In this document: piece after piece, positions 56 to 63,173 of the stretch
Position numbering within the stretch: the first letter of the stretch is position 1
How the letters are laid out: every line of letters begins with the position of its first letter
Source: an uncultured Rhodobacterales bacterium
Lineage (GTDB): Bacteria; Pseudomonadota; Alphaproteobacteria; Rhodobacterales; CAZPXZ01
Direction of reading: 5' to 3'
Length of the DNA stretch: 64,000 nt
Assembly (NCBI GenBank): GCA_964586735.1
Contig: CAZPIN010000089.1
Coordinates: forward strand, 1,200 to 65,199
Notes under the pieces: generated by a model
The model's input: only the letters and a program-made list of their open reading frames with translations
What the model was told of the DNA's origin: nothing
Databases searched by the model: none
Made by a program: the position numbers and the translations under genes

Positions 56-3000
56 TTGACTCTGGAATCAGCGCCGATAACGTACGCGCAGCAACAAGCC
101 TGGTGGGGAGAAAGCGGCATGAGTGAACACTCGCCGAGCAGTCAGGAAGTACTAGAGCTCGACGCCGTCACGGGAAGCGTAAGGCTTCCGGCGTCTTGGG
201 TGGAGATCGTCCAGACCCGTCGCGAGGGCGACGACCTCGTCGTGCAGCTTGTCGACGGGCGCACTTTGCTTGTGCCCGACTTTTTCTCCATCGCGCAGGC
301 TGTGGCCTTAGTGCGCGAGCCAACAGGTGTCATCCTTGCCTTGGACATCACTCCCCAAGGCGAATCGCAGGGAGTCCGCTCCGTCTCCCTGAGCTGGCTG
401 GAGGAGATGTTTGGCATCGAGCCCGAGGAGCAGGTCGCCGCTGAACTCGATGCAGTCGAAGATTCGGAGGAGGAACCAGCCGAAGAGTCCGCCGAAGATC
501 AGGCGGACGAGGCCGCTGCCGTTGCCGCCATCGAAGAGGAAGCCGAACCGGACCAGGTGGCGGCGCCTGAAACCCAGCCAGACTCCAGCGTTGCGGCCAC
601 ATCTTCAGACGAGGACAACGCGACATCCGACGCGCCCAGAGAGCCCAAAAGCGCTGGCAGCTATGTCGACGAGATCATGGTGGCAAGCGCCGTACTGGGA
701 GTCGCCGCCCTCGTCGGAGGTGACGAGGAATCAACGTCGCCGCTTGCGGTTGACCCCGCGTTGAAGCCAGCGCTGCCGGACAGCGAAGTGGTGGAGCGAG
801 GCATAACGAAGACTGAGCAGGCAAGAGTGTTCAATATCGCGGACTGGGCCATCCCTGACGCGGCCCGGATACCCAGCGAAGCGGATGTGGTCTGGACGCC
901 TGCCAGCGGCAGGGAAGGGACGACCCTGCAGGCCAACTTCGACCTCGACGGAGATGGCGCCGTCGACGCCCAGACGAGGATTCACTTCAACGCAGACTAT
1001 GTTGCGACCGGCGTTGACTTCGACGACAACTACGACGGGTCGACGGACCGAAGCGTGGCGTTCACGGTCAACGAAAGCGGCCAGCATACCCTGGCGCGGT
1101 ACGACGACGATGGCGACGGCTCATATGACAGAGCGGAAGCCTACGGAACGGACAGCGACGGCAACCGGGTGGTCCAACATGATGACGACTACCGCGGCGC
1201 CTTTCTGGCGGACAGAATCGAGACCATAACGCAGGATGCCGACGGCACCACCGTTGCGGAGATTGACGAGAACGGTGACGGCAGCCCAGACCGGATCGAA
1301 AGGCGGTTTCTCGACAGAAGCGAAACGCTCAGCGAAGTTTGGGTGTTCGACCTCTCTGACGGCAACCCTGAGGACATCGACGCGCGCAAGACCTATCACT
1401 ACAACGAAATCGGCTTATTGGAGCGCGTTGACCATGACGAGTACGTAGACGGTACTGTTGACAGGTCGGAGTTCTATTTCGGGGGAGACGGCGAAGCCAA
1501 CCGGAGCGAATCGTATTTCCTTGACAGTCAGGGACGCCTCGTCGCTATCTCGTACGACGACGACAACGACGGCAATCCGGACTGGACGGCCGTCCTGGGC
1601 TATGGAGATGCCGCTGGCGGCTCCGCCATAAGCGGCCGAGCCGTCAACCCCGACCCGCGCGAGCATGCGACCGGGCACAGGGCCACCAGCATCACAATCG
1701 ATGAGGATTACGACAGAATTATCGACCGATCTGAGCAGTACGAGTATGTCAGTACCGGCTACGCAAGGGGCCGCGTTGCCGCCATAACGTACGATAACGA
1801 CCACAGCAACGACGGCACCTTCGAGCTTAGGGAAACATTCGAGTATGATCGGAGCTCCCCGCAGCAGAGTCAGCCCCTGCGCAAGTACGTAGATCAGTTC
1901 GCAGATGGGACCTTCGAGCGAGTCGAGCAGTACCGCTACAGTGAAGGCCTTGCCGACAGGGTAGAGCGAATCGAATACGACGACAGCTATGATGGAACCA
2001 GCTTTCAGTCGGACCGGGCTGAGGACATTGAGTATAATAGCCGGGGGGCGGTGAGTAGAACTCGATACGACGACGACAATGACGGAGACGCTGATCGGAT
2101 CGAGGAATACCGCTATGGCCTGGACGCGCGTGTCTCCGAGGTCCGGTTTGACGGGAATGCCGATGGAATCTGGGACTCTATCGAGCGCCATAGATGGAAC
2201 GGCAATGGCAAGCGGGCCGGACGAGTTTATGACAGCGATGCGGATGGCACCCCGGACCGCGCCGAAGCATATCAGTACAACATTAAGGGCCGATTGGGCG
2301 CGATACAAATTGACGATGACGCGGACGGCACCGTCGATTCCTCTGTCGCCATTGCCTATAACGCGCGGGGGCAAGAATCAGCTAGGCTGCATGATGATGA
2401 CATCGACGGTACGGCCAACAGAATTGACACATACAGCTATAGCGGACAGGGCGTACTGGAGAGACTCACCACCCAGACAGATCACAATGACAACGGGTAT
2501 ACCAATTACGAGCGAATTGATACGTTTCTCTACAATGGCGGAATCCTGACCAGCCACCGCGTTCAATACGATCCAGACGAGGATGGCTCCTATGAACGGG
2601 ATGAAGTGACGCTGTACAGCGCGGAGGGCGTCCGTTATGACCGCACCATCAGGCGCGACACCAACGACGACGGAACCTTCAACAGCGTGGAGCGCACCGA
2701 GTGGAGCCTCAGCGATGACTCTTACCGGATCACCGTGAGCCTATATCCGGACTCAAGTCTGGTAGGTTCGCCAAACCGAATGGAAGTGCGCCAGTACGAC
2801 GAGCAGGGCACTATCGACACTGGCATTGAGTATTTCGACTACTCCAGAGACGGCGACTGGGACGAGGTGATCCGCACAACGTATGCCAATGGGCTGCCGC
2901 ACATACTGGAGATATTCGAGGACTTTGACGGCACGATGGCTGCGGATAGAATCATTGTGTACGAATACGACAGCGAAGGAAGCGTCGCGCGGGCAAAGTA

Positions 3001-6000
3001 CGATGATGACGCGGACGGCCAGGGTACTGGCGACTTTGAGAGAATTGAAACTTACACGGGCCGCAACAGCCGGGGAGACCTGACGAGTGTCAGCTACGAT
3101 GACAACGCCGACGGCGTTATCGACCGCACAGAAGTCCGCGAGTACAACGCCGATAATTTGCACGAGAGAAGCACGTTCCTGATTGACGAGAACAATGATC
3201 TTGTCAATGAGCGCCGAGAGACGCTAACTTACAACCAGCTCGGCCAGATTGTGCGCGCGGAATATGATGGCGCCAATGGACCCGATGGCTCGCCAGATGC
3301 CTTGGGGTGGGTTGACCCAACCGGCGCTTCCTATGGCACCGTTGACGGTACAACGGACTGGAGCGAGGAGACGGTGTGGTTTGGCAGCGCGGTAGGAAGG
3401 AAAACCCTCCATTTCCATGGATTCGTCAGTGGGGCAATTGAAAAGACGGAAGTGCATCATTTCGAGCAGGGGGCAATCGGCCGCATCGACCACTACGGGC
3501 GAACCTTGCTCGACGGCACCGCCGACTCTTTGGGCGAAATCGACCCGGACGGAACAGTCTATGGCACATCTGACGGCACGGCAGATGGCTCTCCCGACTG
3601 GACGGAGGACTTCGACTACGCGCCCATGCCGGGTGTCGCGCTTCGCACAACCTCCCGCTACTACGTGGCCGGAAACTCCAACCCAAAGGCAGAGGTGGTG
3701 CGGGAAGACTATACTGACGGAAGCTTCGTCCAGATAAACCGCTGGGATGACGAAGGCGGCACGGCGGATGGGACCATGGACCGCGCTCAGTCCCGGTATT
3801 TTGCGGCGGACGGCCAATTAGCTTATGTCCTTGACGACAGTAACAATGACGGCACCTGGGAATCCAGGGGACAATTTACCTTCAACGAGCAGAACGTCGC
3901 GACTGAATCATTTGTTACCGAATATGGCAGCGATGGCAGGGCCATAGTCCGAACTATAGCAAGCGTGTTTGAGGTGACTCCAAATTCCAGACAGCTGAGA
4001 GAGGAAACCGTAACGGACTACTCCGATGGTGGCACAAACGCCGACAGAATTGTAACTACGAGATACCTCACTTCAGGCGCCGACAGAGGCAAGCCAGAGC
4101 AGACGCTTGTTGACACCAACGGCGATGGTTTGTGGGAAACTGATACTGTTTCAAGCTATTCAGCCACAGGGCGTACGGATCTAGTTAGCTACCATCTCCA
4201 CCCCACGGACGATTCTATAGTTAACCGCGGTGAGCGCCAAACATTTAATGAAGTGGGCCATTTAACTGGCATTGAGCATGACATGGACTATAACGGCACT
4301 GAGGCCGATTTTTCCGCCGATGCGACAACCGAGCACGCTTATGAAGCCAATGGCAGGCGAACGGTTTCGAGATTTGACCTGAACGCGGATGGTACCGTGG
4401 ACATCGCCTACTCATACAGCTATGACGCAAGCGGCACCCGGGAGTCGGTTGGAATCCATAACGACGGAACCATTAGCGGCAGTGCTGACCGGTCAGAGAC
4501 GATGGTATACAACGACGATAGCGGGCTGCCGAGTCAGGTTGAGTACGACTATGACAATGACAGCACCGTCGACGCGCGGGCGATAAACCGCTATGACGAC
4601 TCTGGTCGCTTGATCGTGATTCGCCACAACGATGGCTCGTCCGAAAGGACCGAAACGCGAACCTTCAACGTAAGGGACCAAATCGCAAGCATTGCACGCG
4701 ATTTTGACGGAAATGGCACGGCTGACGCGCTTGAGGAGAACCGCTATGACAGTTCTGGCCGGCTGAGTCGCATCCTTTATGACGACAACCATAGTGATGA
4801 CGGTGTTTATGAGCGAATTGTGCGCATTGTCTACAGCAATGGCCAGATCGAGCGCATACAGTATGATATGGACGCTGACAGCGCGATCGACTTTGAAGTC
4901 GACGCATTCGGTTACGATTCTCTTGGCAGGAGGGTAAGTGAAACCACCAGCGAAAGCGGCGTTGCTACGCGCACCGATACTATTGAATACGAGGGAAACA
5001 GCCAGCGCCTTGCGAGGCGCACTATCTCCTGGCGCAATGTGGATGGTGACGGCGATGGAACGCCAGGCGTGATCGAAAGGCGGGAGTACGATGCATTCGG
5101 CAGAGTTACGCGCGTTGAATACTACGACAACATCGCTGCAATTGCCTCTAACGACGAGGATCGAATAGTCTCGTACACCTACAACGGCAGCACGAACCTT
5201 GTAGCAACGGCCAATTTCGACATCGACGGAGACGGCACCGTCTCCCGTCACGCAACCTACACGTACGGGACAAACAATCGACTCCAGTCCATTGCCGTTA
5301 ATCTCGACCTTGATGATGATGGCACCACTGATGAATCTGAAACCTACACCTATACCTCGGATCGTACTGTCACCATCGAATATGACGGGACAGACGATCG
5401 GGTTGAATATTTAACCTACGCTGGGGCCAGTATCCAATCTCCCTCACTGCCAGGAACAGATGTCGAAGTACCGCCAAGCGTGGCGGAGCTCGCTTCTTTA
5501 CGGAGTGTACTGGAGGGAGTTGCCAGAATTGCACACGGCCGCATCGAAAGACTGGCGACAAACCATATATCCAACAGCAACGACGTTACAATTGATGAAG
5601 TTGAGACGTATTACTACAACCAGGGCGGTGATTTGATTCGCACTGACATCGATATGGATAACGATGGCACAGTAGACAGGAGACAGCACATTAGTGAAGG
5701 CGATTTTAACTGGCTTGAAGTTGACCATAATGATGATGGAACCTTTGACGAAGTCTATCGAGATGTTGAATTCGATGAAGAGGGTCGCGCTAGCGTCCGC
5801 GAATATTCTGACATCGAATCCGCGCCCGATTTTGAAGTAAACATAACTGAGTTTCGACTGTACGAGAGTGCAAGCGATAGCCTCCCATGGGCCCATGTGC
5901 GCGACTTGGACGGTGATCCAGATTACGACACCATGTATGTGGAATTCTCCGGCGGGACTTTGGAGATTCTCCCGACAACAGGTTCACTGTTCCCGCATCT

Positions 6001-6307
6001 TGAAACGATTGATCTTGGAGGGCTGACCCTCGATGGCAGCAGTCCATCGGTAACTCTGGATATTGACTCGGAAACGGTTCGAAATCTTGCAGGGGGAGCT
6101 GATGGAACCATTGACAACCGATACAACGAAGAATCCCCCTATGTGCTGAGAATCATTTCCAACCGCGCGTCCGGACTCAACCTAGCCAGCAGCGAATTCG
6201 CAAGAGACGACAGCGCTGATTCCGGCGACCTGCAAGCCTATAGGGCTTCCAGCAATGACTTGCTGGTTGTTCTGGTGGACCCGGACATTACCGTTACACT
6301 GGCTTAA
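56..6307 (+). CDS. Giant polyacidic repeat protein, family member A (BapA-prefix-like N-terminal cassette, one hydrophobic helix, YD-like + DxDxDG repeats, conserved C-terminal cassette)
   Basis: Uninterrupted 2083-codon ORF. The track start at 56 is TTG; the ATG at 119, preceded by GGGGAGAAAG, is the more likely start. N-terminal cassette: RREGDDLVVQLVDGRTLLVPDFF...LSWLEEMFG. An E/A-rich linker and one hydrophobic helix follow (IMVASAVLGVAALVGG, ~nt 668-721). The body is dozens of ~45-55-aa units (Y-x-YD-x-x-G-x-L then DxDxDG-x-x-DR). The protein ends LLVVLVDPDITVTLA. Confidence 0.85.
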   Translation: MTLESAPITYAQQQAWWGESGMSEHSPSSQEVLELDAVTGSVRLPASWVEIVQTRREGDDLVVQLVDGRTLLVPDFFSIAQAVALVREPTGVILALDITPQGESQGVRSVSLSWLEEMFGIEPEEQVAAELDAVEDSEEEPAEESAEDQADEAAAVAAIEEEAEPDQVAAPETQPDSSVAATSSDEDNATSDAPREPKSAGSYVDEIMVASAVLGVAALVGGDEESTSPLAVDPALKPALPDSEVVERGITKTEQARVFNIADWAIPDAARIPSEADVVWTPASGREGTTLQANFDLDGDGAVDAQTRIHFNADYVATGVDFDDNYDGSTDRSVAFTVNESGQHTLARYDDDGDGSYDRAEAYGTDSDGNRVVQHDDDYRGAFLADRIETITQDADGTTVAEIDENGDGSPDRIERRFLDRSETLSEVWVFDLSDGNPEDIDARKTYHYNEIGLLERVDHDEYVDGTVDRSEFYFGGDGEANRSESYFLDSQGRLVAISYDDDNDGNPDWTAVLGYGDAAGGSAISGRAVNPDPREHATGHRATSITIDEDYDRIIDRSEQYEYVSTGYARGRVAAITYDNDHSNDGTFELRETFEYDRSSPQQSQPLRKYVDQFADGTFERVEQYRYSEGLADRVERIEYDDSYDGTSFQSDRAEDIEYNSRGAVSRTRYDDDNDGDADRIEEYRYGLDARVSEVRFDGNADGIWDSIERHRWNGNGKRAGRVYDSDADGTPDRAEAYQYNIKGRLGAIQIDDDADGTVDSSVAIAYNARGQESARLHDDDIDGTANRIDTYSYSGQGVLERLTTQTDHNDNGYTNYERIDTFLYNGGILTSHRVQYDPDEDGSYERDEVTLYSAEGVRYDRTIRRDTNDDGTFNSVERTEWSLSDDSYRITVSLYPDSSLVGSPNRMEVRQYDEQGTIDTGIEYFDYSRDGDWDEVIRTTYANGLPHILEIFEDFDGTMAADRIIVYEYDSEGSVARAKYDDDADGQGTGDFERIETYTGRNSRGDLTSVSYDDNADGVIDRTEVREYNADNLHERSTFLIDENNDLVNERRETLTYNQLGQIVRAEYDGANGPDGSPDALGWVDPTGASYGTVDGTTDWSEETVWFGSAVGRKTLHFHGFVSGAIEKTEVHHFEQGAIGRIDHYGRTLLDGTADSLGEIDPDGTVYGTSDGTADGSPDWTEDFDYAPMPGVALRTTSRYYVAGNSNPKAEVVREDYTDGSFVQINRWDDEGGTADGTMDRAQSRYFAADGQLAYVLDDSNNDGTWESRGQFTFNEQNVATESFVTEYGSDGRAIVRTIASVFEVTPNSRQLREETVTDYSDGGTNADRIVTTRYLTSGADRGKPEQTLVDTNGDGLWETDTVSSYSATGRTDLVSYHLHPTDDSIVNRGERQTFNEVGHLTGIEHDMDYNGTEADFSADATTEHAYEANGRRTVSRFDLNADGTVDIAYSYSYDASGTRESVGIHNDGTISGSADRSETMVYNDDSGLPSQVEYDYDNDSTVDARAINRYDDSGRLIVIRHNDGSSERTETRTFNVRDQIASIARDFDGNGTADALEENRYDSSGRLSRILYDDNHSDDGVYERIVRIVYSNGQIERIQYDMDADSAIDFEVDAFGYDSLGRRVSETTSESGVATRTDTIEYEGNSQRLARRTISWRNVDGDGDGTPGVIERREYDAFGRVTRVEYYDNIAAIASNDEDRIVSYTYNGSTNLVATANFDIDGDGTVSRHATYTYGTNNRLQSIAVNLDLDDDGTTDESETYTYTSDRTVTIEYDGTDDRVEYLTYAGASIQSPSLPGTDVEVPPSVAELASLRSVLEGVARIAHGRIERLATNHISNSNDVTIDEVETYYYNQGGDLIRTDIDMDNDGTVDRRQHISEGDFNWLEVDHNDDGTFDEVYRDVEFDEEGRASVREYSDIESAPDFEVNITEFRLYESASDSLPWAHVRDLDGDPDYDTMYVEFSGGTLEILPTTGSLFPHLETIDLGGLTLDGSSPSVTLDIDSETVRNLAGGADGTIDNRYNEESPYVLRIISNRASGLNLASSEFARDDSADSGDLQAYRASSNDLLVVLVDPDITVTLA

Positions 6308-6598: not shown

Positions 6599-6668
6599 AC
6601 CAGCATACTCAACCAGTGCACGTTGATACGGTACTGGCTTGTTGCTGCCATATCCCATTGGAGGAACT

Positions 6669-7442
6669 ATGTTCTACGCAAATTTTCGCCCGGGCGAGAG
6701 AGAACGCCTGCAGGAAGTTATCCGCTACCTGCAAAGCACATTCCATAGAGTCTTTGCTATGGACAACCTGATTGCACTGGGAAAGAGCGCAGGGTTCATG
6801 CAGGATAACCGCTTTACGGGCGCTGTAGAGCGCCACGCGAAAACCCAGCAGGAGCATTCGCTGCTCTGGCGGCTGCACACGCTTGTGTGGGCTGCCCAAA
6901 ATGCCCTGTCCGTCCAAGGCGACTTCGTGGAATGCGGAGTTTGGCGCGGATACAGCTGCGCCGTCATCACATCCTATCTGGATTTCGCCAAGATCGACAA
7001 AACCCTGTATCTGTATGACACGTTTCGCGGGATACCCGATTCTTACAATTCAGAGAACCGGCCCAATGCCATCTATGATCGAGAGAACAAGGATGACCCC
7101 GACACCATCCTCAATCATGTCCGCAGCGTTTTCGAACCTTTTCCCAATGTGCGCATTGTGCCAGGCGTAATTCCAGACACCTTCAAGAACGAATGCCCTG
7201 AGCACATTTCTTTTCTCCACATTGACATGAACTCCGCCGCTTCAGAAATGGCCGCTCTAGAGCACCTTTACGACCGCGTGACTCCTGGCGGCATAATAGT
7301 GTTTGACGATTATGGCTGGAACGCCTACATCGCTCAGAAGAAGGCGGAGGACAAGTTCATGTCCGCGCGCAATCAGCACATACTCGAACTGCCCACTGGG
7401 CAGGGTCTTCTCGTGAAGCAGGCACCGGCGAAATCCACCTAA
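6669..7442 (+). CDS. TylF/MycF-family SAM-dependent (sugar) O-methyltransferase
   Basis: ATG at 6669 preceded by GGAGGA; the track ORF begins at 6639. Family-typical motifs: ECGVWRGYSCAVI (SAM-binding E-x-G-V-x-x-G) and FLHIDMNSAASEMAALEHLYDRVTPGGIIVFDDYGW. Confidence 0.8.
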   Translation: MFYANFRPGERERLQEVIRYLQSTFHRVFAMDNLIALGKSAGFMQDNRFTGAVERHAKTQQEHSLLWRLHTLVWAAQNALSVQGDFVECGVWRGYSCAVITSYLDFAKIDKTLYLYDTFRGIPDSYNSENRPNAIYDRENKDDPDTILNHVRSVFEPFPNVRIVPGVIPDTFKNECPEHISFLHIDMNSAASEMAALEHLYDRVTPGGIIVFDDYGWNAYIAQKKAEDKFMSARNQHILELPTGQGLLVKQAPAKST

Positions 7443-7486
7443 CGCAACAAGGATAGCTTCCACACGGCGATGCAACGGAGGCAGTG

Positions 7487-8257
7487 CTACGCCACGCGCC
7501 TGAGATACCCATTGCGGGCTGCAGATATGGACAAGCGATCCGTAATTGCATGATCGCATTCATACTCGGGATGCGTCTGCAAAAAATCCCGAACGGCGGA
7601 CATCGGATTGTTGCCTGGTCCCCATGGCCGGTCTGGATAGGAGTCAGCTGGCATGTCCTCGATAAGGGTGTCAAACACCACGCAGTAGCTGCCCACCGAA
7701 ACTAACGGCGCATAGACTTCCAGCTCAGCCCGGACGTGTTCATGCGTGTGGTTGCTGTCCAAGCATACCAGAATCCGCTCATAGTCCTTGGAGAATTCAC
7801 GCACCCCGTCTAGTACTCCTTCGTCAGTACTTGGCCCTTCCACCATTTCGATCCGCGAGCGCATCGGATGTGCGTCCAGCGCAACGCGATTGTGCTCCCG
7901 AATGTCGATATCGATACCCAGCACCCGCCGATGGGATACTGCAGGATCCATCATCTTACCCGCTTCAATTGCCTCGCACATGTCCAGCATCGCCAGCATT
8001 GATGCGGACAAGACTAGGGAGCCGCCATGGGCAATCCCGGTCTCGATAACCAAGTCTGGCCGCAGCTCCCAGATTAGCTCCTGGATCGCGACAATGTCCT
8101 GCGGATACTGGATGATTGGCCTGTCTAGCCAGTGAAAGTTGTACGAATACCTTGGTCCTACGGACGCCCGCAGGAACTCCAGCGCAGCCTTCCTCAGCCT
8201 TTCATCATTCGCCAGGTCAGCGGTGCGACGCACAACCTCTTCCTTGAAACTGTTCAT
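7487..8257 (-). CDS. CmcI-family ('cephalosporin hydroxylase'-type) methyltransferase
   Basis: ATG at 8257 preceded by GGAGGCGGG; the track ORF extends to 8308. Motifs: RYSYNFHWLDRPIIQYPQDIVAIQELIW, VIETGIAHGGSLV and LDSNHTHEHVRAELEVYAPLVSVGSYCVVFDT, typical of CmcI-like methyltransferases found in glycan clusters. Confidence 0.8.
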   Translation of the reverse strand: MNSFKEEVVRRTADLANDERLRKAALEFLRASVGPRYSYNFHWLDRPIIQYPQDIVAIQELIWELRPDLVIETGIAHGGSLVLSASMLAMLDMCEAIEAGKMMDPAVSHRRVLGIDIDIREHNRVALDAHPMRSRIEMVEGPSTDEGVLDGVREFSKDYERILVCLDSNHTHEHVRAELEVYAPLVSVGSYCVVFDTLIEDMPADSYPDRPWGPGNNPMSAVRDFLQTHPEYECDHAITDRLSISAARNGYLRRVA

Positions 8258-8360
8258 GGACCCGCCTCCGGAAGTGTACAGGCGGCGCGCGTCTTGGCGC
8301 AAGCCCAACCATCTGGCTCCAGGCTGCCATGCTCATCCGCGCCGATTTCTGAATACACAC

Positions 8361-9194: not shown

Positions 9195-9303
9195 CAGCGA
9201 CCTCCGCAGCTAAGCCCTTGAGTCGCGCACAATACCTCCGGCGGGTGCGTCAAGGCAGAGTTCGCCGCGAAACGATGTCCGGCGAGGCAACGCGACGGTC
9301 TGT

Positions 9304-48684: not shown

Positions 48685-48710
48685 GCGCCGCCCCCGCCAG
48701 GGAGACATCC

Positions 48711-49454: not shown

Positions 49455-49481
49455 GAAGCGGCAGAACGGCGGGAGGCGAGC

Positions 49482-54244: not shown

Positions 54245-55406
54245 CGGCAGGCCGATCCAGTCACCGCTTGGGTCACCGCCCCGTCCGGGGCCGTAGCTGT
54301 CCAAGGCCCGCCACGCGGAAACCGCCCGGCATTTGCGGCAAGGTTTCTCGCCAGCTATGGCGCACCTCGGGCAATATTCGGAAGCTTGCTGCAGGCGCGG
54401 GTTGGCATAGGTGAGGAAATCTGCCTCTCCCGAGTAGCTGCCTCGCGGCGGCCAGACCGTCGTTCAAGTGGGGGAGCGCGGCGTACGCCGTTTCTGCCGG
54501 AACCAGCAACGCCGCCTGCCGCAGGCGGTGACAGAAAGGATGCTGGCCACTGTGCCTGCAGGCCGCGAAACGGGAGCGGGCGAGCGGCGCAGGTCGGCAT
54601 AGGTACCGCAGCCTGATCGTCTCCCGGATGCCCAACGCATGGGCAAGAACACCCTATAGCCACCGCGGGAAGTTCAGCGTCTCCATCGACAGATGAAGTG
54701 GAGCGAAAGCCGGGATGCCTGGCTTCGCTGCTGCGCAGAGTGCGCTCTCTGCACCCTGCGCATCGAGGGAAACGCGCGCCTTGTTCTGGTCGGGGAAGAT
54801 GTCGGCTGGAGCAAGCGCAGGGATGGCCTGTCTCGGATGTTCCCATATCTCACCGCGGGCCGTGGCCGAGAGTCGCTGGCGCACTGTCGGGGACAGCGGA
54901 AGGCAGAGGAGGGGTTCCCTTCCATACGCGCCCCGCACGCCTTCGGGCGCGGCGGGTACTCGCCGGACGGCATTGCGGACCGACGCCCGCATCGCGACTT
55001 CCTTCTTTACCAGCTACCTGAGTCTGGCATCTGGCGCATCGAGTGTCGATTCAAAGTCAGCGCAGGGGACACAGTACAACCCACACGGCCCTTACGAATC
55101 GGTGCCTGATCGTACTGCACCGCTCAGCTGGCATCTGTCCGTACACCACGCCGTTCAGGCATGAGGCGGATGCGAAGTCCTTGTGCGGGGCGATGCTGTT
55201 GCCGCAGGCTTACGCTCCGGTCAGTGGGCCCCTTGAGGCATCGGCCCTGCGGCGCGGTGGCGTCTTGGCCCGGTCTAGTTGCTTGTGGAATATGGCATTA
55301 TTGAGAAAGCCGTCGGAGTCAGTTGGTGCCAGATAGCATCGAGTCGATCGGCAGGGCCAGCTGGACAGACGAGGAAGCGAACGCTATGGTATCTCGTCAG
55401 ATGGGC

Positions 55407-55556
55407 TTGACACGCCCATGTGCGTTACTATGATGCGCACACTCACAAGCGAATCGCCGACGCGGCCCTAGCGTCGGTGGCAGCAAGACAACCCGCAGGG
55501 GCCCGTTCGCGGGTCCATACATCTGGCCCCTCCAGTGCCAGAATAAGGAGAACACT
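55407..55556 (+). promoter_or_regulatory. Family promoter (TTGACA-N16-TATGAT) plus conserved ~115-nt leader of member G
   Basis: GGGCTTGACAC (TTGACA at 55407-55412) and ACTATGATGCGC (TATGAT at 55429-55434). The 16-mer GGTGGCAGCAAGACAA lies at 55476-55491, 42 nt after the -10 box exactly as in F. Followed by an ACCCGC...GCGGGT hairpin. RBS and start context: AGGAGAACACTATG. Confidence 0.5.
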
Positions 55557-58500
55557 ATGTCCTTGTCACAACTCGACTCCCAGCTCGACATGAGAGTGCC
55601 CACCGCCCTTCCCGACGGCTTGGATGCCGTGCTTCTGCCAGTGCATCTCGACCAGGTCGGGCGAACCTACAGGGACGGCAACCACTTGGTGGTAGTGCTG
55701 GCCGATGGTAGGGAACTGCTTCTAGAAGGGTGGTTTGTCAGGCTGGAAGAAGGGAACGGGGTCGCGCTGCTGGTACGGGACGGAAATACCGGCGAAATCG
55801 TTGCGCTCACCATCTCCGAGACCGGCAAGTATGCGGGCGCGCAGCCCGTCGCGCTGGGTCGCCTGGAGGAGATGTTTGGCGCCGACGCTGACGCCATCGA
55901 GGAGGCCGTGCAGAAGGCCGGGGTCCATGCGCTTGTGGCAACCACCCCTGAACTCACCCAGGCGATAATAGTCGGAGGCGTAGTCTTGACCGCGTCCGTG
56001 GCCTTTATCACACAGTCCGAGCGTGAGACCGGTACGGGAGTGACTGTCACTACCGTTGACGATGACGAAGATGGCACCTTCGAGCAAATCATGTATGACA
56101 ACGACAGCGACGGCACCATAGACCGTACCGAGTACGACGACAACGATGACGGCTCCATCGACCGCACCGAGCACGACTCAGACGACAACGGTACGGCCGA
56201 TCGCACAGAGTACGATGCCAACAACAACGGCAATCCAGAAAGAATCGTGTACAACGCAGACGGGGCTGGCGTCAACGTACGAAGAGCGTTTGACACCGAC
56301 GACAACGGCTCCGTCGATCGCACTGAACACGACGCCGACGGCGATGGCACACCGGATCGAATTGTGCACAACGCAGACGCGGCGGGCATCAACGTACGCA
56401 CTGAGCATGACGCCGATGAAGACGGCACCTTCGAACGCACCGAGTACGACGCCGATGGCGACGGTGCGCCGGAGCGGATCGCGCATGACGCCGACGAGGA
56501 CGGTACTGCCGAACGCACCGAGTATGATACGAACGACAACGGTTCCATCGACCGTACCGAGCATGACGACAACGGCGACGGCACGCCGGAGCGGACTGTG
56601 CACAACGCAGACGCGGCTGGAGTCAACGTGCGAACTGAGCACGACACCAACAGCGACGGGACGCCAAACCGCACCGAGTACGACGCCGATGGCGACGGCA
56701 CCCCAGAGCGCACCGTTTACGACGACGATGACGATGGCATAGCCAACAGCACCGAGTACGACGACAATGACGACGGCACCGTCGAGCGCACCGAATACGA
56801 CGACGACGCAGACGGCACCCCAGACCGCACCGAGGATGGTCCCAGAAGTGTCGTTCTCAGAGGCCCGGAGCTCAGCACTGAGCAGGCCGAGGCGGCGCTG
56901 CTGGAAGCCGCCGGCACAAGCGTTGACGGGACGCAGGAGGCAGCGATTCGGGCGCTGGCTCGGGCGATAACGCCCCGCGGTCTCGACAGCGTGCATGCCG
57001 CCGAAATTGGCACCACGGGCGGATATGTGGAGTTCGACATCGACGGCGACGGTACCGCCGACCAGCGCTCCGAACTCGAGTGGGCGCAGGATTCGTACGT
57101 TCTGCGCACGGAGAGAGTGGACCTCGACTACGACGGAACGTTCGAAGCGGACCTCGTCAGGGAATGGTCGTCTTTCGACAGCGAGGGACGCCCAGCGGTG
57201 GAGACAGTCGACGAAAACGCCGACGGCAGCGCGAACCGCCATATGCAGCATGTCTATGACGATCAGGGACGCGTGGTAGAGACGAGGATATCGACCTATC
57301 AGGCTGCAGGCTTCGACGGAGCGGCGGTGGACCCCGAGTCCTTTGTCAGCGCAATGTTTCAGGTCGAGATTGACACCAACGGCGACGGTACGGCCGAGAC
57401 CTTCCAGGTGACGAATCCCAGAGGGAGCATCGCCGTGGCAGATGGCGTAATTGTGGTCAACCTGCAGGCGCGCGTTCCCAAATCAGATCCCCAAGGCAGC
57501 GCGTTCACGGAAAACCGGGGGCCGGACTATTCAGCCGTTGACACGGACGATCTGGAAAGCGTCGTGCTGGTGGACACCAACGACGATAGTACGCCGGACA
57601 GGGTCTATCCAGTCATACAGGCCATAGAGATCGATGGCACCAGCCACGCCCTGTATTATGACTTTAGGCGTGACAACGGGCTGGTCGGCGTACACAGGCA
57701 TCAGGAGCAAACCCTGCACATTGACACTGACGGAGATGACACTCCGGACAAAGTCTACACTGCCAGGAATGGCAGGATCGTGGTTGAAAATGTCTACACG
57801 GACAATGACGGTACGATTGTAACGGAAGAAGTGGAGTACACGCCGTTTAACGCCATAGACTATGACGGCACCGTGGTCAGGGTTTCCGAGTATTCCGGCG
57901 ACCTCGCCGTGGAGGGTGCGGTACTGACCTTTGTTGACGGAACCATGACCGCTGCGGCCATTGACGGCGCGGCAACGCAGGTTGCCAGCGGCACCATTGA
58001 AAGCATAGCCGTTGACGCCACTGCCGAGGAAATCGTGAAGTATGCATACGGGACCGCGGGCGGAAGCCAGGAAGCGGCCGACAGCGAGGACATGGCGGAG
58101 CATCTCATATCGACCAGCTACGACTACGACGCGGACGGTACCGCCGAGCGGGTCGACAGGTACGAGCGCAACGACCGGGGCCACATCATCAAGGTCGGGT
58201 ACGACTTAAACGGCGACGGCACGGCCGAGCGCAGCGAATCCTATCTCCTGCGGGATGACTGGATGCGGGGTACGGAAAACAATGTCGCCCGGGAATTCGT
58301 GAGCGCGCGGCGGGGCGATATCGACGCCCTGGACATTATTGATCAGTCCGAGCACCGGGAAGTTGCCGCGGCGCTGCAGCGCAACCTATTTTCGGGTGCG
58401 CAGATCGCCGCCATACAGTACGACGACAACGATGACGGGACAACGGATCGAGTCGAGCGCGTAAGCTATGACGACGCCGGCCGTCCAGCTGCAGTCCAGG

Positions 58501-61500
58501 TGGATCTCGGCTTTAACGGCACCGTGGACCGCACCGAAGCCTACGGCTACAACGACAAGAATCAGATTGTCAGCGCCCGGTTTCACGAGGGCGACAATAC
58601 GGACGATGCGCATTATCTCGAGCAGATCTACGCATATGACGAATATGGCCGCATGTACCGGATCGAGAGCCATACCAATGGCGACGGCACGGCGGAGGAA
58701 GTCCGCAGTTTCGAATTTGACGACCAGGGCCGTATCAGCGCGTACAGGCTGCAGTCCGGCCTTGAGATTCAGTCAGAGACTGACGGAGCTGGATTCACGC
58801 GGGTTGCCGTTTATGGCGTAGACCACACGGAGGAGTTCGAGCGCAACGAGCTTGGCCAGATCGTCAGATCCCAGACCCGCGTGGAGGACGCGGACCCCGA
58901 TGGATACAGGCCGTTCATCGAGTATGAGTGGGACGGTCAGGGACGGTTGGTAACGGAGCGCCACGACATATTTGATCTGTCACAGCTTGATATCCCGCTC
59001 CTCCCAGGCCTTCCTCCCCCACCGCCATCGCCGCAGGCTTTCGAGCTGGGTTTTGAATACGAATACAACGCCGCAGGGCAGGTCGCCAGACGCGTCGAAC
59101 TTGTGAGCGTGGACGGCACGCTTGAAGAAAAGGCGGCGACCAGATTCGAGTATGACGATCTTGGCAGGCTTTACCTGAAGACTGTCGAGGGGGAAGCCGA
59201 ATTCGGCAACGGCAGGCCGACCACCACCAGCTTCTATGCCAGCGGGAGCTACTTTGCCTTTCGGAAGTCGCTGGCCAGCGAAGTCGCGTACCTTGAGGAC
59301 TATCTGGGAGCCGACGTTGGAGGCGACCGTCTGTCGGACACCGCGGGAACCGACGGCAGCGCGGGCGCCGACGGTACGGCGGACGACTTGTGGGGAGTTG
59401 GCGACCGGTTCGCCGACGCGAACAGCGACGGGAGGCCAGACGACGTCTGGCACGACCGCGACGGCGACGGAACGGCAGACGATTTCTGGAGAGACAACGG
59501 CTACCTGCATAGTGATGGCTGGGTGGAATTCAGCGACAGATTCGCGGACGGCACGCCGGACGATTTCTGGTCCGATGTCAACGGCGACGGCAATTATGAC
59601 GATTTCCTGCCAAATCTTGTAACGTTCAATCCTGGCGACAGAATTGCGTACAACCACCGCGGGGTAACCATCATTCATCCCGGTGACGCGATTGTTGATA
59701 TTGGAGGTACCACTGATACGGGCATGATTGGATCTGACGACAGGCACGTCATCGACGAAAGCAATGTGATTGCGGTTGCCTCCGGCTTCGTGAGGGTCAC
59801 CGATTCCGATGGCATCCGTACGATTTACGGCGGCGGCACATCGTTTACCGTCGGCGAGGGCGACTGGCTCGCCATATCCAATGGCGCCAGATTTACCGTC
59901 GACGGCGGCAGCGACATAACCGTTTGGCAGGCGAGCTCGATGGTCATCAGGGCCGATGGCACAATTTCCGTCAATCCCGACGGAACCAATGACATCAGGC
60001 CAGACGGCGTTCCAGATGAAAATCCGGACGGCACTCCCGACATGTTCCCTGACGGCACGCCGGACATCAACCCCGACGGCACGCCGGATGACTTTCTTGG
60101 AGCATATGACCTGGACGGCAACGCGATCGGCGACGGCATTCCGGACCTGGTCCCCGGCGTATCCGATGGTACGGCAGATCCGGTTTCCGACGGAACGGTG
60201 GACGATTTCTTTGACGCTGACGGCACTCCGGGAGCGGACGGCACTCCCGATGACGCGGCTCCCGACGGAACCCCCGACCGCGGCTCCGACGGAACGCCAG
60301 AGAGGCTGGTGTTCAGCCATGCTGGGGACCTCACGGTCGACTCGGATTTTTTCGATCCGGCGCGGATCGCCGGCATCAGGGAGATCCATCTGGCGGGAGA
60401 ACGCCTGACGCACTCCATAGGCACAAGATTCGAGATCGCCGACGGGTTTCTGATCGACCTTGCGGAAGCCGGCTCCGCCGACGGTCCGGTGGAAATCGCC
60501 ATCCATGGCCACCGCGCATACTTTGACGCGGACGACGCCATCGCGTTCGAGGGAGATGGATTCCGGCGGGTCCGCTACGACCATGGCGGAAACAGCCTCT
60601 ATGTCGATTCGGACGGCAACAGGCTTCTCGTTGAGCGGGAAGACGTCGCAGTTTCGACGACGTTCACCAGAATGGTTCCGGAGCTTGTCGCGGCGGCCAC
60701 CAGCGGCGCGCTTACGGCGGCGCTTCTCAGAAGCGCAGGGATTGACGTCGCTGCCGAAACGGCCGTCAACAACGCCGAAAAGGTCATTGCCGCTTACGGC
60801 ACGGCCGTGGCAGACATCGATGACCCGGATGCGCGGAGCCTGCTTGAGCTCATCATGACGGACTCGCTGCCCGAGTATGTGAGGCCGTACGCCGCCCTTA
60901 CCGGCGCAAGATACGACGCTTCAGGAGAATTTCTGACGCTGTACATCAACGACGGCGGAGACGCCTCGGGGACGGCTGACCGGACCGCCAGGATCACCTA
61001 CGATGCCGACAGGGGCGGTCTTGCGGTATCGGCTGGATTCTTCCTTGGCGACGACGAGGATGGCGTTCAGCTCTATGGGGACTGGGTGGAAACCTATGCC
61101 TACAACCCCGACAGGAGCATGGTTACTACGATAGAGGCAGGCGGCGAGACTATTGGCCATCTGACATACAGCCTAGACGCTTTCGGCAACACCCTTAGCG
61201 ACGGCACTCCGGACGGTCTGGCGTTGCATGGCGACCTTGTGCTGGACGCGCACTTCGCGCAGATTCTCTCCGGCAACGGCATCAGCGTTATCGATATGGA
61301 CCGGCATATCCCCGAGCGCCCGTTCCAGGCTGCGGAAACTGGGGGGGTCTACACGGACGACGAGGGGACGGAGCAAACCTACGAGGGGCGCCCCGAGGTT
61401 TCCGCCCGGGACGAAGTTGAAGGAACCGCCGCGCATCTTCATCTCTCCGTCGAGTCGCTGGCCGTGCTGGCGGACGAAGACGGTGACGGTACGCCCGACC

Positions 61501-63173
61501 CCGACTACACGCTCGCCATTCATGGCGACCAGTCCGACACGCTGACTCTTTCGGGAGACTTTGTCAGGGCATGGGAGCTTGACAGCCTTCTGCCGTCGTT
61601 TGACGGCTTGAACGAGCGTTTCCACGCCTATCGAAGCGCGTCCGGCGTTGTTCTGGTGGATCCCAGCGTGTCAACCCGGATGGAAAGCCTTCTGGCCACC
61701 ATTTTTTCAAATGAGATAACGCTTCCTCCAGTCGGAGGGGGCGACGCCGTAACCCGCATTGACACCCCCGTTACCGACACCAATGGCGACGGTACGCCCG
61801 ACGCAGGAGACGGCACGGTCGACCGCTTCGAGTATGGCAGCGTAGCAGTGCAGATTGATGACGTAGTTGGCAGCAATCCGGTTCAGTTCAGAGCATACAC
61901 GGACGCCAACAATGATGGCGTATACGATATCTTTGGCCTCGACGGCACGCTCGATACGGACACCAACGGCGACGGCACGCTCAACGCCGATGTCTTTGGC
62001 TCCCGCGACGGCACGCTCGATACGGATACCAACGCCGACGGCACGCTCAACGGCGATCTCTTTTTCGGCGGCGACGGCACGCTTGATTCCGACACCAACG
62101 GCGACGGTACAAACAACGCCGATATCTTTGACCATCGCCCAGACGGTACGCTTGATACGGATACCAATGGCGACGGTGCGCTTGACGCCGACGTCTATGG
62201 CGGCGAAAGCGACGGCACGCTCGATACGGACACCAACGGCGACGGCACGCTCAACGCCGATGTCTTTGGCAGTGCCGATGTCTTTGGCAGTAGCGACGGC
62301 ACTTCGCGCGATGGCAACGATGGCATGCGGGACATAGATACCAACGGTGACGGCAGGCGCGACGTCGATCTCTTCATCGGCAAAATCGGCGACGGTACGC
62401 TCGATACGGATCTCAACCACGACGGTACGCTCGACTTCGACAATCAGGGTATCCCGGTACTCACGGATTGGATGTCTTCCAGATATCACTTTCAAGATGA
62501 GACGCCTGGTTCCGACGGCATAATTGACCGCGTGGAGCTGCGGCCTGCCCGCGTGGTACAACTGACCGACACCGACGGCGACGGCACCTTCGACCGCGTG
62601 ACCGAGGAAAGGGACACTGACCGGGACGGTACCTTCGACCGCATCGAGCACGCCGTTTACGACCAGGCGACGTTTGACGGCAACCTTGACGGTACGCTTG
62701 AAAGCGAATTCAGGGTCGTTTACCGGGAATACGACGACGACGCCAATGACGACCTTGACCGGGTGGTGTTCGAAAGCGGCCTTACCTATTCCCTGGACCT
62801 GACAGTGGCCAAGGCCGCTGACTGGGCGGGAGTCAATCGCATCACGCTGTCCCGCGGAGACACGGGCGAGACAACCCTCACGCTACCGCCGGACGCGTAT
62901 GTCGCAACCAGAGGGGATGTCCTCTCCGCTACCAGCGCTATGGCCTCAGAAAGGCGGCTGTGGATTGACGGCGATGAAAACGACACTGTCCAGATAGAGT
63001 TGGGGAGCGGCACGAACGAGTTCACGGCCGTAGACAACGACAATGACGGCACAGTGGATAACGTCAACGGCTATCACCGTTACTCCGCCACAATTGCCAA
63101 CAGCGGCGGAATGCAAATAGCCTATGACCTCAGGATTGACGCGGACATCACCGTCGTGGACATAACGCCCTAG
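55557..63173 (+). CDS. Polyacidic family member G (largest copy)
   Basis: 2538 aa. N cassette: VGRTYRDGNHLVVVLADGRELLLEGWF...ALGRLEEMFG. Helix: AIIVGGVVLTASVAFI. Several distinct repeat arrays are present, and two internal C-cassette-like copies lie at ~60373-60655 and ~61428-61683. Ends AYDLRIDADITVVDITP. Confidence 0.85.
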   Translation: MSLSQLDSQLDMRVPTALPDGLDAVLLPVHLDQVGRTYRDGNHLVVVLADGRELLLEGWFVRLEEGNGVALLVRDGNTGEIVALTISETGKYAGAQPVALGRLEEMFGADADAIEEAVQKAGVHALVATTPELTQAIIVGGVVLTASVAFITQSERETGTGVTVTTVDDDEDGTFEQIMYDNDSDGTIDRTEYDDNDDGSIDRTEHDSDDNGTADRTEYDANNNGNPERIVYNADGAGVNVRRAFDTDDNGSVDRTEHDADGDGTPDRIVHNADAAGINVRTEHDADEDGTFERTEYDADGDGAPERIAHDADEDGTAERTEYDTNDNGSIDRTEHDDNGDGTPERTVHNADAAGVNVRTEHDTNSDGTPNRTEYDADGDGTPERTVYDDDDDGIANSTEYDDNDDGTVERTEYDDDADGTPDRTEDGPRSVVLRGPELSTEQAEAALLEAAGTSVDGTQEAAIRALARAITPRGLDSVHAAEIGTTGGYVEFDIDGDGTADQRSELEWAQDSYVLRTERVDLDYDGTFEADLVREWSSFDSEGRPAVETVDENADGSANRHMQHVYDDQGRVVETRISTYQAAGFDGAAVDPESFVSAMFQVEIDTNGDGTAETFQVTNPRGSIAVADGVIVVNLQARVPKSDPQGSAFTENRGPDYSAVDTDDLESVVLVDTNDDSTPDRVYPVIQAIEIDGTSHALYYDFRRDNGLVGVHRHQEQTLHIDTDGDDTPDKVYTARNGRIVVENVYTDNDGTIVTEEVEYTPFNAIDYDGTVVRVSEYSGDLAVEGAVLTFVDGTMTAAAIDGAATQVASGTIESIAVDATAEEIVKYAYGTAGGSQEAADSEDMAEHLISTSYDYDADGTAERVDRYERNDRGHIIKVGYDLNGDGTAERSESYLLRDDWMRGTENNVAREFVSARRGDIDALDIIDQSEHREVAAALQRNLFSGAQIAAIQYDDNDDGTTDRVERVSYDDAGRPAAVQVDLGFNGTVDRTEAYGYNDKNQIVSARFHEGDNTDDAHYLEQIYAYDEYGRMYRIESHTNGDGTAEEVRSFEFDDQGRISAYRLQSGLEIQSETDGAGFTRVAVYGVDHTEEFERNELGQIVRSQTRVEDADPDGYRPFIEYEWDGQGRLVTERHDIFDLSQLDIPLLPGLPPPPPSPQAFELGFEYEYNAAGQVARRVELVSVDGTLEEKAATRFEYDDLGRLYLKTVEGEAEFGNGRPTTTSFYASGSYFAFRKSLASEVAYLEDYLGADVGGDRLSDTAGTDGSAGADGTADDLWGVGDRFADANSDGRPDDVWHDRDGDGTADDFWRDNGYLHSDGWVEFSDRFADGTPDDFWSDVNGDGNYDDFLPNLVTFNPGDRIAYNHRGVTIIHPGDAIVDIGGTTDTGMIGSDDRHVIDESNVIAVASGFVRVTDSDGIRTIYGGGTSFTVGEGDWLAISNGARFTVDGGSDITVWQASSMVIRADGTISVNPDGTNDIRPDGVPDENPDGTPDMFPDGTPDINPDGTPDDFLGAYDLDGNAIGDGIPDLVPGVSDGTADPVSDGTVDDFFDADGTPGADGTPDDAAPDGTPDRGSDGTPERLVFSHAGDLTVDSDFFDPARIAGIREIHLAGERLTHSIGTRFEIADGFLIDLAEAGSADGPVEIAIHGHRAYFDADDAIAFEGDGFRRVRYDHGGNSLYVDSDGNRLLVEREDVAVSTTFTRMVPELVAAATSGALTAALLRSAGIDVAAETAVNNAEKVIAAYGTAVADIDDPDARSLLELIMTDSLPEYVRPYAALTGARYDASGEFLTLYINDGGDASGTADRTARITYDADRGGLAVSAGFFLGDDEDGVQLYGDWVETYAYNPDRSMVTTIEAGGETIGHLTYSLDAFGNTLSDGTPDGLALHGDLVLDAHFAQILSGNGISVIDMDRHIPERPFQAAETGGVYTDDEGTEQTYEGRPEVSARDEVEGTAAHLHLSVESLAVLADEDGDGTPDPDYTLAIHGDQSDTLTLSGDFVRAWELDSLLPSFDGLNERFHAYRSASGVVLVDPSVSTRMESLLATIFSNEITLPPVGGGDAVTRIDTPVTDTNGDGTPDAGDGTVDRFEYGSVAVQIDDVVGSNPVQFRAYTDANNDGVYDIFGLDGTLDTDTNGDGTLNADVFGSRDGTLDTDTNADGTLNGDLFFGGDGTLDSDTNGDGTNNADIFDHRPDGTLDTDTNGDGALDADVYGGESDGTLDTDTNGDGTLNADVFGSADVFGSSDGTSRDGNDGMRDIDTNGDGRRDVDLFIGKIGDGTLDTDLNHDGTLDFDNQGIPVLTDWMSSRYHFQDETPGSDGIIDRVELRPARVVQLTDTDGDGTFDRVTEERDTDRDGTFDRIEHAVYDQATFDGNLDGTLESEFRVVYREYDDDANDDLDRVVFESGLTYSLDLTVAKAADWAGVNRITLSRGDTGETTLTLPPDAYVATRGDVLSATSAMASERRLWIDGDENDTVQIELGSGTNEFTAVDNDNDGTVDNVNGYHRYSATIANSGGMQIAYDLRIDADITVVDITP
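56050..56840 (+). repeat. Coding array of DxDxDG loops with 13-residue period in member G
   Basis: The unit [TE(Y/H)D(A/D)(D/N)(G/D)DGT(P/I)(E/D)R] is iterated ~20 times. It is interspersed with the variant ERIVHNADAAGVNVRTEHD, which is also present in F. Confidence 0.85.
59973..60305 (+). repeat. Pro/Asp 'PDGTPD' micro-repeat array in member G
   Basis: NPDGTNDIRPDGVPDENPDGTPDMFPDGTPDINPDGTPDDF...VSDGTADPVSDGTVDDFFDADGTPGADGTPDDAAPDGTPDRGSDGTPE, with units of 6-9 residues. Confidence 0.8.
61941..62294 (+). repeat. Five tandem 66-69-nt coding repeats plus a perfect 18-nt micro-duplication in member G
   Basis: Units start at 61941, 62007, 62073, 62142 and 62211 (DGTLDTDTNGDGTLNADVFGS...). The first 60 nt of units 1 and 5 are identical. 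GCCGATGTCTTTGGCAGT occurs twice in tandem (62256-62273 and 62274-62291). Confidence 0.9.

Follow-up and report, generated by a model that had tools for sequence, protein, structure and literature searches.

The sequence analysed here (the window) is a 64-kb piece of an alphaproteobacterial chromosome with ~62% GC, which is also present in the Logan assembly of SRR16090826. Its gene content includes the cell-cycle regulator GcrA, pstSCAB-phoB, argD/argF, ribF, an MscS channel, a dTDP-rhamnose/O-methyltransferase cluster and a restriction-modification fusion gene. Among these genes lie seven loci (A to G, Table 1) which an earlier note on this DNA had singled out as a family of giant acidic proteins with an N-terminal and a C-terminal cassette in common. 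All seven loci were recovered, and their summed length of 25.1 kb (39% of the window) agrees with the ~25 kb and ~40% claimed for them. By sequence comparison, the seven loci are one genuine family of homologous paralogs, and the best explanation for them is a rare subfamily of BapA-prefix proteins.

The gene models needed few changes. Locus A had been given as 56-6307; its end was retained, while its start is most likely the ATG at 119, which has a GGGGAG Shine-Dalgarno sequence, rather than the TTG at 56. For locus D the start proposed before, at 33807, is also the most likely one. Ribosome-binding sites of the AGGAG type precede F, G and E, and the ribosome-binding context is nearly identical in F and G (AGGAGAACAC[CT]ATG). 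The protein of locus F is identical to the database protein P0015. Locus B is decayed, as had been noted: it is a remnant spread over three reading frames, its core and hydrophobic segment are gone, and its N cassette survives out of frame with the remainder. Residues 20-72 of a 1919-aa (amino acid) relative, P0010, map to B at 15164-15006 with 85% identity and residues 1745-1918 map to 14943-14392, in a frame different from that of the N-cassette piece, which corresponds to a core deletion of ~1,670 residues relative to P0010.

Table 1. Positions of the seven loci, their parts and the adjoining permease gene in the window.
Locus	Feature	Position	Strand	Remarks
A	gene	119-6307	+	2062 aa from ATG 119; open reading frame (ORF) opens at TTG 56
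A	N cassette	161-415	+	89.6 bits
A	hydrophobic segment	674-721	+	
A	core		+	~27-aa units of YD-like plus DxDxDG motifs
A	terminal C domain	5984-6301	+	39.2 bits, external profile
B	gene remnant	14380-15220	-	decayed
B	first residues	15131-15220	-	frame -1
B	N-cassette fragment	15006-15164	-	frame -3
B	C-terminal ORF	14380-14973	-	frame -2; 197 aa, holds the C domain
C	gene	29237-30607	-	452-456 aa; minimal member
C	N cassette	30266-30532	-	
C	hydrophobic segment	30140-30193	-	
C	core		-	one D-type 288-aa module
C	terminal C domain	29246-29527	-	
D	gene	30745-33807	-	1020 aa
D	N cassette	33469-33744	-	
D	hydrophobic stretch	33364-33399	-	weak, short
D	body		-	three ~288-aa modules in tandem (helical part, DxDxDG-bearing beta part, C domain)
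D	internal C domain, copy 1	32500-32766	-	58.4 bits, external profile
D	internal C domain, copy 2	31636-31917	-	52.5 bits
D	terminal C domain	30748-31047	-	54.0 bits
E	gene	34341-36500	-	719 aa
E	N cassette	36099-36428	-	with a 20-aa insertion
E	hydrophobic segment	35973-36026	-	
E	core		-	two helical 'ALGRIN...GV..' modules
E	terminal C domain	34344-34634	-	
F	gene	50402-54244	+	1280 aa
F	N cassette	50444-50713	+	
F	hydrophobic segment	50807-50857	+	
F	internal C domain	51110-51382	+	32.5 bits, E 2.6e-9
F	array of EF-hand-loop-like ~13-aa units	51842-52780	+	DxDxDGTxxRxEH
F	terminal C domain	53918-54238	+	
G	gene	55557-63173	+	2538 aa
G	N cassette	55611-55880	+	
G	hydrophobic segment	55962-56009	+	
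G	array on a 13-residue lattice	56052-56867	+	39-nucleotide (nt) and 117-nt periods
G	internal C domain	61377-61682	+	49.2 bits
G	internal C domain, weaker	60354-60659	+	20.1 bits
G	22-aa repeats	61936-62277	+	DGTLDTDTNGDGTLNADVFGS, five times
G	terminal C domain	62811-63161	+	
	YadH-like ABC-2 permease	36701-37549	-	directly upstream of, and co-oriented with, E-D-C

Two conserved terminal domains

The N cassette is a BapA_N-like, ~90-aa beta domain at the N-terminus. It occurs in all seven loci, as had been claimed, with most pairwise BLAST E-values between 1e-4 and 1e-60; the weaker pairs are A-D (E 0.018) and several that involve the short B fragment, for which BLAST gave no significant match. 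Against a family profile of 24 sequences, their own included, the cassettes of the six intact copies scored 78-116 bits, and those of F and G are nearest neighbours, with 69% identity. The likeness to the BapA prefix suggested by the earlier note was borne out by Pfam, where BapA_N matched all six intact copies, though below threshold: they scored 13-26 bits (best, F with 26.4) where the cut-off of PF22783 is 27 bits, and 20-26 bits where that of the NCBIfam model NF033677 is 35 bits. This sub-threshold match is the only one to the curated libraries that the family's proteins gave. Relatives recovered with the family profiles do pass the Pfam cut-off (P0085 with 50.3, P0059 with 48.9, P0053 with 48.7, P0037 with 45.9, P0144 with 36.6 and P0010 with 30.8 bits), and because these relatives exceed it, at 31-50 bits, the homology of the N cassette to the BapA prefix is sound. 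The retention_LapA model NF033682 matched none of the family proteins. In an AlphaFold2 (AF2) model of the N domain, the beta core reached a predicted local distance difference test score (pLDDT) of 75-90. Its best matches of low root-mean-square deviation (rmsd) in the PDB were the C-terminal regions of type I-secreted RTX (repeats-in-toxin) lipases, with weak E-values (for 2qua, probability 0.96, rmsd 3.2 Å, E 0.08).

The C cassette is a beta domain of ~95 aa that ends in [VI]-D-x-[DE]-[IV]-x-V in the family. BLAST with SEG masking joined only the C cassettes of B, D and F, and local profile iteration added those of A and C and revealed internal copies. With an external profile built from 216 domain copies, all of them from non-window proteins, we found the terminal copies of all seven loci at E-values of 1e-10 to 1e-19, so that the claimed presence of this cassette in every locus stands. 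The scores were 39 (A), 57 (B), 58 (C), 54 (D), 63 (F) and 47 bits (G); the terminal domain of E scored 36.5 bits with the HMMER filters switched off and a profile that contained neither window nor E-like sequences. The cassette is not a mere end tag, as it had been taken to be, since D has two further copies inside the protein, F one and G two.

If the likeness between the loci were a by-product of Asp-rich, low-complexity composition, masking should abolish it, and several pairs of masked C cassettes, among them A-B, A-C and C-F, indeed gave no significant BLAST match (E > 0.6). The N cassettes, however, are not acidic and mostly align at the E-values given above, the non-window profile finds every terminal C domain, and orthologs align over their full length. 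The N-cassette BLAST and the external C-domain profile refute a compositional artefact, an explanation that we regard as having practically no chance of being right.

The predicted structure of the C domain (pLDDT 85.5) had no Foldseek match in the PDB, its sequence matched no solved structure, and tblastn of the C domains against plasmids gave no useful match. A relationship between the N and C cassettes themselves was considered and rejected (hhalign probability 0.6%). In pairwise comparison the C domain of F is closest to those of B and D, and the terminal copy of G is among the most divergent. F and G are thus near each other by the N cassette and not by the C domain, and some mosaicism is real.

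Acidic cores and EF-hand-loop arrays

The cores had been described as Asp-rich throughout and made of DxDxDG loops. Their acidity was confirmed for the whole family. The second part of the description fits A, F and G, with 25, 24 and 49 DxDxDG motifs, and hardly fits C, D and E, with 1, 5 and 6. The family proteins contain 9-15% D, 19-22% D+E and 0-3 Cys each; in neighbouring housekeeping proteins D+E amounts to 12-15% and the isoelectric point (pI) is 5-6. Because the neighbouring proteins have this ordinary composition, the acidity is the family's own property and not a genome-wide one, and an origin in a salt-in halophile was rejected for the same reason.

Nor are the cores unrelated and hypervariable, as the earlier note had it, since several copies have modules in common and full-length counterparts exist elsewhere. 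The part of C that follows its helix aligns to the module that D carries in tandem (E 6e-24), and the 13-residue repeats of F and G are 46% identical over 246 aa, with A aligning weakly to both. A restricted repertoire of modules makes up the cores: helical 'A-L-x-x-I-N...G-V' units (in E and some relatives), DxDxDG-bearing beta segments, YD-like hairpins, 13-residue EF-hand-loop arrays and internal C domains.

The first array of G is built of units of the form [YH]-D-x-[DN]-x-[DN]-G-[TS]-x-[ED]-R-T-E (consensus YDxDxDGTxERTE), with 17 loop starts over 20 lattice positions and the motif missing at three of these. As judged by its residue pattern, each unit consists of a canonical EF-hand loop and a single linker residue. 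A relaxed EF-hand-loop pattern was matched 10 times in A, 9 times in F and 16 times in G, against 0.03-0.14 in shuffled sequences. Arrays like that of G occur in F and in the relatives P0039, P0042 and P0005, and the nearest solved sequence to the G array, at a marginal E of 0.014, is lanmodulin. The 12-residue loop D-x-[DN]-x-[DN]-G-x-x-[DE]-x-x-E is that of EF-hand proteins and lanmodulin, and units of ~13 residues are also found in thrombospondin type 3 repeats, which form a Ca2+-filled 'wire'. Unlike EF-hands, thrombospondin and the 'calcium blades' described together with Dx[DN]xDG motifs (PMC3123361), the window arrays lack flanking helices, for which a 13-residue period leaves no room, have no disulfides (0 Cys) and are too short for propeller blades. 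The window proteins gave no EF-hand, TSP_3, FG-GAP or RHS_repeat match in Pfam, and their cores no Pfam match at all, even at E <= 5. In particular, no Big_*, Cadherin, VCBS or Calx-beta model matched at that threshold, in agreement with the stated absence of Ig-like, cadherin and VCBS repeats.

The YD-like motifs deserve separate mention. Motifs such as YDDQGR, YDEYGR and FDDQGR are visible by eye in G, repeats of ~27 aa make up A, and a relative, P0085, gave a weak RHS_repeat match (E 0.0011). The YD-like repeats of A, F and G could be taken to suggest Rhs/YD-type polymorphic toxins or contact-dependent effectors. In the window proteins, though, no RHS_repeat, toxin or immunity domain was found even at E <= 5, no small immunity-like gene follows the loci, and the conserved part is the C-terminus, the opposite of polymorphic toxins. 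The lack of such domains and the conserved C-terminus led us to reject this very improbable reading.

Relatives elsewhere and genomic neighbourhood

When the C-domain profile was run exhaustively with HMMER against 1.84 billion representatives, only 148 proteins were retrieved at E <= 1e-3; this number is a lower bound because the profile came from divergent acidic copies. The C domain lies at most 12 residues from the C-terminus in 118 of 149 analysed proteins, and such terminal domains typically end in [LIV]-[LIV]-[VI]-D-x-D-[IV]-x-[VI]. At least three RTX nonapeptides are present in 54 of these 118 proteins; in most of the 54, the last nonapeptide is 18-31 aa (about 22) upstream of the C domain. 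Among 37 C-domain relatives that were scanned, FG-GAP was found in 17, HemolysinCabind in 14 and BapA_N in 12. The window-type N cassette is borne by ~30 proteins of the C-domain set, those of the window included, and one N-cassette relative, P0144, has ordinary Big_6/Big_13 extenders.

The relative P0053 has BapA_N, a hydrophobic segment and repeats of both helical and YD-like type, and it closes with a C domain. In its genomic context (L066) it is directly followed by genes for an OEP protein, a 721-aa ABC_membrane/ABC_tran protein and an AprE-type membrane fusion protein (MFP), and these three genes are a complete type I secretion operon.

Family members were found in a small number of Logan samples, on a TARA ocean scaffold and in a Jannaschia metagenome-assembled genome (MAG); the family is rare and belongs to uncultured or poorly sampled marine-type alphaproteobacteria. 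Full-length counterparts in other samples are about 31-67% identical overall (40% for A, 58% for C, 39% for D and 67% for E), and F aligns to P0039 with 32% identity over ~920 residues. In a second assembly (L064), the order of an ABC-2 permease, a D-like and a C-like gene is conserved, and the genes for GcrA, a histidine kinase and an E-like protein are close by. A recent lineage-specific expansion with swapping of cores, as previously proposed, does not fit paralogs that have counterparts of their own and a neighbourhood that is conserved elsewhere.

A two-block pattern (R-[ED]-G-[DN]-x-L ... L-[ED]-E-M-F) searched at the DNA level was found in 26 genome and 33 metagenome stretches, of which only one, on a 3.1-kb contig of the Jannaschia MAG (L026), is a true family member. 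Many of the others (L005-L029, L031-L063; for example L010 at 3943-4142 and L019 at 2973-3172) have the same 200-nt spacing. They stem from soil Hyphomicrobiales, Pseudolabrys and Undibacter MAGs, match neither cassette profile and presumably encode another conserved protein with R-x-G-[DN]-x-L ... L-[ED]-E-M-F. A search of genome and metagenome contigs with a 9-aa motif gave chance matches only.

The YadH-like permease next to E-D-C is solitary, with no adjacent ATPase, and stands beside gcrA both in the window and in L064 (8444-9364); it is probably a neighbour and not a partner of E-D-C. The GcrA homolog itself (37643-39043, + strand) has 466 aa compared with the 173 positions of the NCBIfam GcrA model. 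Its N- and C-terminal segments are split by a very basic low-complexity insert of ~300 aa (K+R 21%, pI 10.8) that holds 30-nt tandem repeats at 38087-38173; the GcrA called in L064 has only 78 aa. The C-D-E cluster is bordered by a tRNA-Leu(TAA) gene (28913-28997, - strand), located between argD and locus C, that could mark an old integration site. Between the histidine kinase and pstS lies a low-GC restriction-modification stretch (0.53-0.57, with 0.55 at third codon positions), probably a horizontally acquired island, in which an Eco57I-type methylase is fused to a BsuBI/PstI endonuclease helix-turn-helix domain (41092-43233, with 40600-41079, both on the - strand).

A pstS-pstC-pstA-pstB-(phoU)-phoB block (43741-50183) ends with phoB, and 219 nt separate this gene from the start of locus F, which is followed by G; the 1.3-kb gap between F and G (54245-55556) contained no convincing ORF, Rfam family or tRNA. 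Matches to a Pho box upstream of the family genes were at chance level with an E. coli-type consensus, which may not be the host's, and no 9-mer was common to three or more of the upstream regions. Directly downstream of A, a glycan cluster (6639-13374) encodes O-methyltransferases of the TylF-like and CmcI-like (rhamnosyl) kinds, RmlC, a nucleotidyltransferase, a GT2-TPR protein and two epimerase/dehydratases. In L067, the family member P0006 is likewise followed by an epimerase, and the family may have a link to surface glycans or glycosylation. Three consecutive ORFs at 23779-26618 (+ strand; 336, 280 and 210 aa, the middle one with a pI of 10.3) had no Pfam or NCBIfam match.

Proposed export, retention and calcium binding

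We favour, with moderate confidence, the reading that the family consists of type I-secreted, envelope-retained, Ca2+-binding surface proteins. The sole hydrophobic stretch of these proteins is the segment that follows the N cassette, and a Sec signal peptide is therefore absent. This, together with the near absence of Cys, the acidity and the placement of the C domain where a secretion signal follows RTX repeats, points to type I secretion. The adhesin-like nature proposed by the earlier note, linked to a type I secretion system (T1SS), is likewise the best available, if indirect, account, based on the terminal C domain in 118 of 149 proteins, the RTX repeats upstream of it in 54 and the operon in L066.

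Several observations weigh against this reading. A single operon, that of L066, links the family to a T1SS, and P0053 is distant from the window family (its C domain scored 47.5 bits, and its N cassette had an E of 1.9e-8 in a space of 1,000 sequences). No T1SS, LapG or LapD gene was found in the window, and no secretion genes in the short flanks of the family contexts L064, L067, L068 and L069. The RTX nonapeptides are indeed missing, as the earlier note had stated (neither a relaxed nor a strict pattern matched anywhere in A or C-G, and HemolysinCabind gave no match), and Ca2+ binding is predicted purely from motifs. The likeness of the C cassette to the VC_A0849 subclass of C-terminal target domains did not hold up, with no relevant NCBIfam or Pfam match at E-values up to 10. 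With NCBIfam, the C-termini of A-F gave nothing at E <= 10 and that of G only irrelevant sub-threshold matches to lanmodulin (E 0.012) and YaaA (E 0.1); the C-termini of the RTX-linked relatives gave no relevant NCBIfam or Pfam match either. Its internal copies mark the C domain as a structural domain rather than a signal alone. No consistent [TAP]AA[GV] site for LapG lies between cassette and helix. Lastly, a hydrophobic helix of 16-18 residues is, to our knowledge, not a described feature of T1SS substrates, and taken alone it would suggest a membrane anchor.

One such helix had been claimed for each intact copy. With a threshold of KD19 > 1.5, we found one strong segment near the N-terminus of A, C, E, F and G, while the stretch in D (LGLIVLIIGYLY, 12 residues) stays under it; the loss in B was confirmed. 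Across the family the segment is Gly/Ala-rich and 16-18 residues long, and 27 of 31 proteins with the N cassette have it in the same position, although it is weak in D and several relatives.

The main rival explanation starts from this segment and sees single-pass inner-membrane proteins, inserted by Sec/YidC through a signal-anchor (N-in, C-out) with no type I secretion; the BapA_N-like domain would be cytoplasmic, and the polyacidic region would serve in the periplasm as a divalent-cation buffer or envelope spacer. The conservation and fixed place of the one hydrophobic stretch suit this arrangement, as does its downstream flank, which is the more acidic one (mean 4.4 D/E in 20 aa) and would be the side translocated; in addition, five of the six contexts seen, the window included, have no adjacent T1SS genes. 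A positive-inside signal is nevertheless missing, since the 20 residues upstream hold a mean of 0.7 K/R and that flank is acidic too, the segment is Gly/Ala-rich and not strong everywhere, and ectodomains of up to 2,400 aa fit the periplasm poorly. Membrane anchoring would also leave unexplained the C domain at the C-terminus after RTX repeats in 54 relatives and the T1SS operon after P0053. Overall, we judge it to be rather unlikely.

Type I secretion could also end in release, the proteins being soluble or matrix Ca2+ binders or an S-layer-like coat, with the N cassette serving, for example, in self-association. The Rhizobium Rap proteins, which organise exopolysaccharide, provide an example, and a rhamnose/O-methyl glycan cluster adjoins locus A. 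The evidence for secretion is the same as for retained proteins, and neither a LapG cleavage motif nor a match to a LapA-type retention module was found. Against release stand the homology of the N cassette to the BapA prefix, at the position that the retention module has in RTX adhesins (bioRxiv 10.1101/2025.09.30.679566), and the conserved hydrophobic helix, which favours association with a membrane or channel. Release thus appears unlikely, although it carries some weight.

Retained surface proteins resemble several known systems in part. The minimum RTX adhesin consists of a retention module, a series of Ig-like extenders and, at the C-terminus, a beta-roll bearing the T1SS signal (bioRxiv 10.1101/2025.09.30.679566). 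With BapA of Salmonella and other BapA-prefix, RTX-type adhesins, the window proteins have in common the N-terminal prefix-like domain, a conserved C-terminal end, very large size, acidity, few Cys and repeats with Ca2+-binding motifs, and a relative with both cassettes directly precedes an OEP-ABC-MFP operon. In contrast to these adhesins, they have neither Ig-like, cadherin or VCBS extenders nor an RTX beta-roll, fall just under the Pfam cut-off, carry a conserved hydrophobic helix after the prefix and are encoded by seven paralogs scattered among housekeeping genes with no adjacent secretion genes. Because Ig-like extenders and RTX beta-roll are both absent, the family should not be filed under RTX adhesins. 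It probably works like them, and the most fitting description is that of a rare branch of BapA-prefix proteins without RTX repeats or extenders. With LapA/MapA the likeness is one of general logic only, an N-terminal folded plug and a C-terminal secretion signal (bioRxiv 10.1101/2025.09.30.679566), whereas the NF033682 match, the (T/A/P)AA(G/V) site and, in the window, LapG/LapD are lacking.

At the C-terminus, the match is with RTX/FG-GAP 'calcium-binding' giants, which have the same ~95-aa terminal domain (joint consensus ...IE.IDL.G.G.NTLTL...DVL.L......L.I.GD.GD.V........G..Y..Y.....TLLVD.DI.V). Those giants have RTX nonapeptides ~22 aa upstream and FG-GAP propellers and are poor in Glu (about 2% E), while in the window proteins both repeat types are absent, D and E are both abundant, and the C domain is repeated internally. 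In Zymomonas mobilis the MIP protein, a native T1SS cargo, has a conserved C-terminal tag (the last ~60 aa) that was shown experimentally to drive secretion and whose relatives include FG-GAP, BapA-prefix, Big_6 and Big_13 proteins (bioRxiv 10.64898/2026.05.28.728472). MIP is an alphaproteobacterial giant as well, and the domain company of its tag matches that of the C domain, as compared by description only; unlike the window proteins, it has Ig-like repeats and RTX motifs. Identity of the MIP tag with the C domain is a lead only.

For type I-secreted, envelope-retained proteins we propose the following mechanism, in which we infer the export route, Ca2+ binding, retention and biological role. 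The proteins would be made with no Sec signal peptide and exported C-terminus first, with the targeting information in the terminal C domain, by a T1SS whose genes lie elsewhere in the genome. Extracellular Ca2+ would then bind the DxDxDG and EF-type loops and drive folding and stiffening, in place of the RTX beta-roll and the Ca2+-bridged Ig-like extenders of classical RTX adhesins. The N-terminal domain and the hydrophobic helix may stall export and tether the protein to the envelope, and the outcome would be a polyanionic, Ca2+-loaded surface or matrix layer.

More tentatively, and with doubt prevailing, these elements might together amount to a new class of T1SS surface proteins by architecture. 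On this view, arrays of 13-residue EF-hand loops without helices would, together with the DxDxDG modules, be a previously undescribed, disulfide-free, Ca2+-dependent fold that acts as an extracellular folding ratchet and replaces the RTX beta-roll and Ig-like extenders in type I-secreted giants. The BapA prefix with its Gly/Ala-rich, acid-flanked helix would be a retention device independent of LapG/LapD, and the unmodelled ~95-aa C domain would complete the architecture.

Curated domain libraries thus pass over nearly all of what ~25 kb of the window encodes. The family being rare, its practical interest is moderate, yet its conserved C domain is shared with RTX and FG-GAP proteins and unmodelled. 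If our reading is true, a profile of the C domain would aid the annotation of T1SS cargo, the domain is a concrete, testable candidate for a T1SS targeting domain, and the helix after the prefix is a testable candidate for a retention mechanism unlike the LapG/LapD paradigm. Type I-secreted surface giants would then be possible without RTX repeats or Ig-like extenders, built from bare EF-hand loops and DxDxDG modules.

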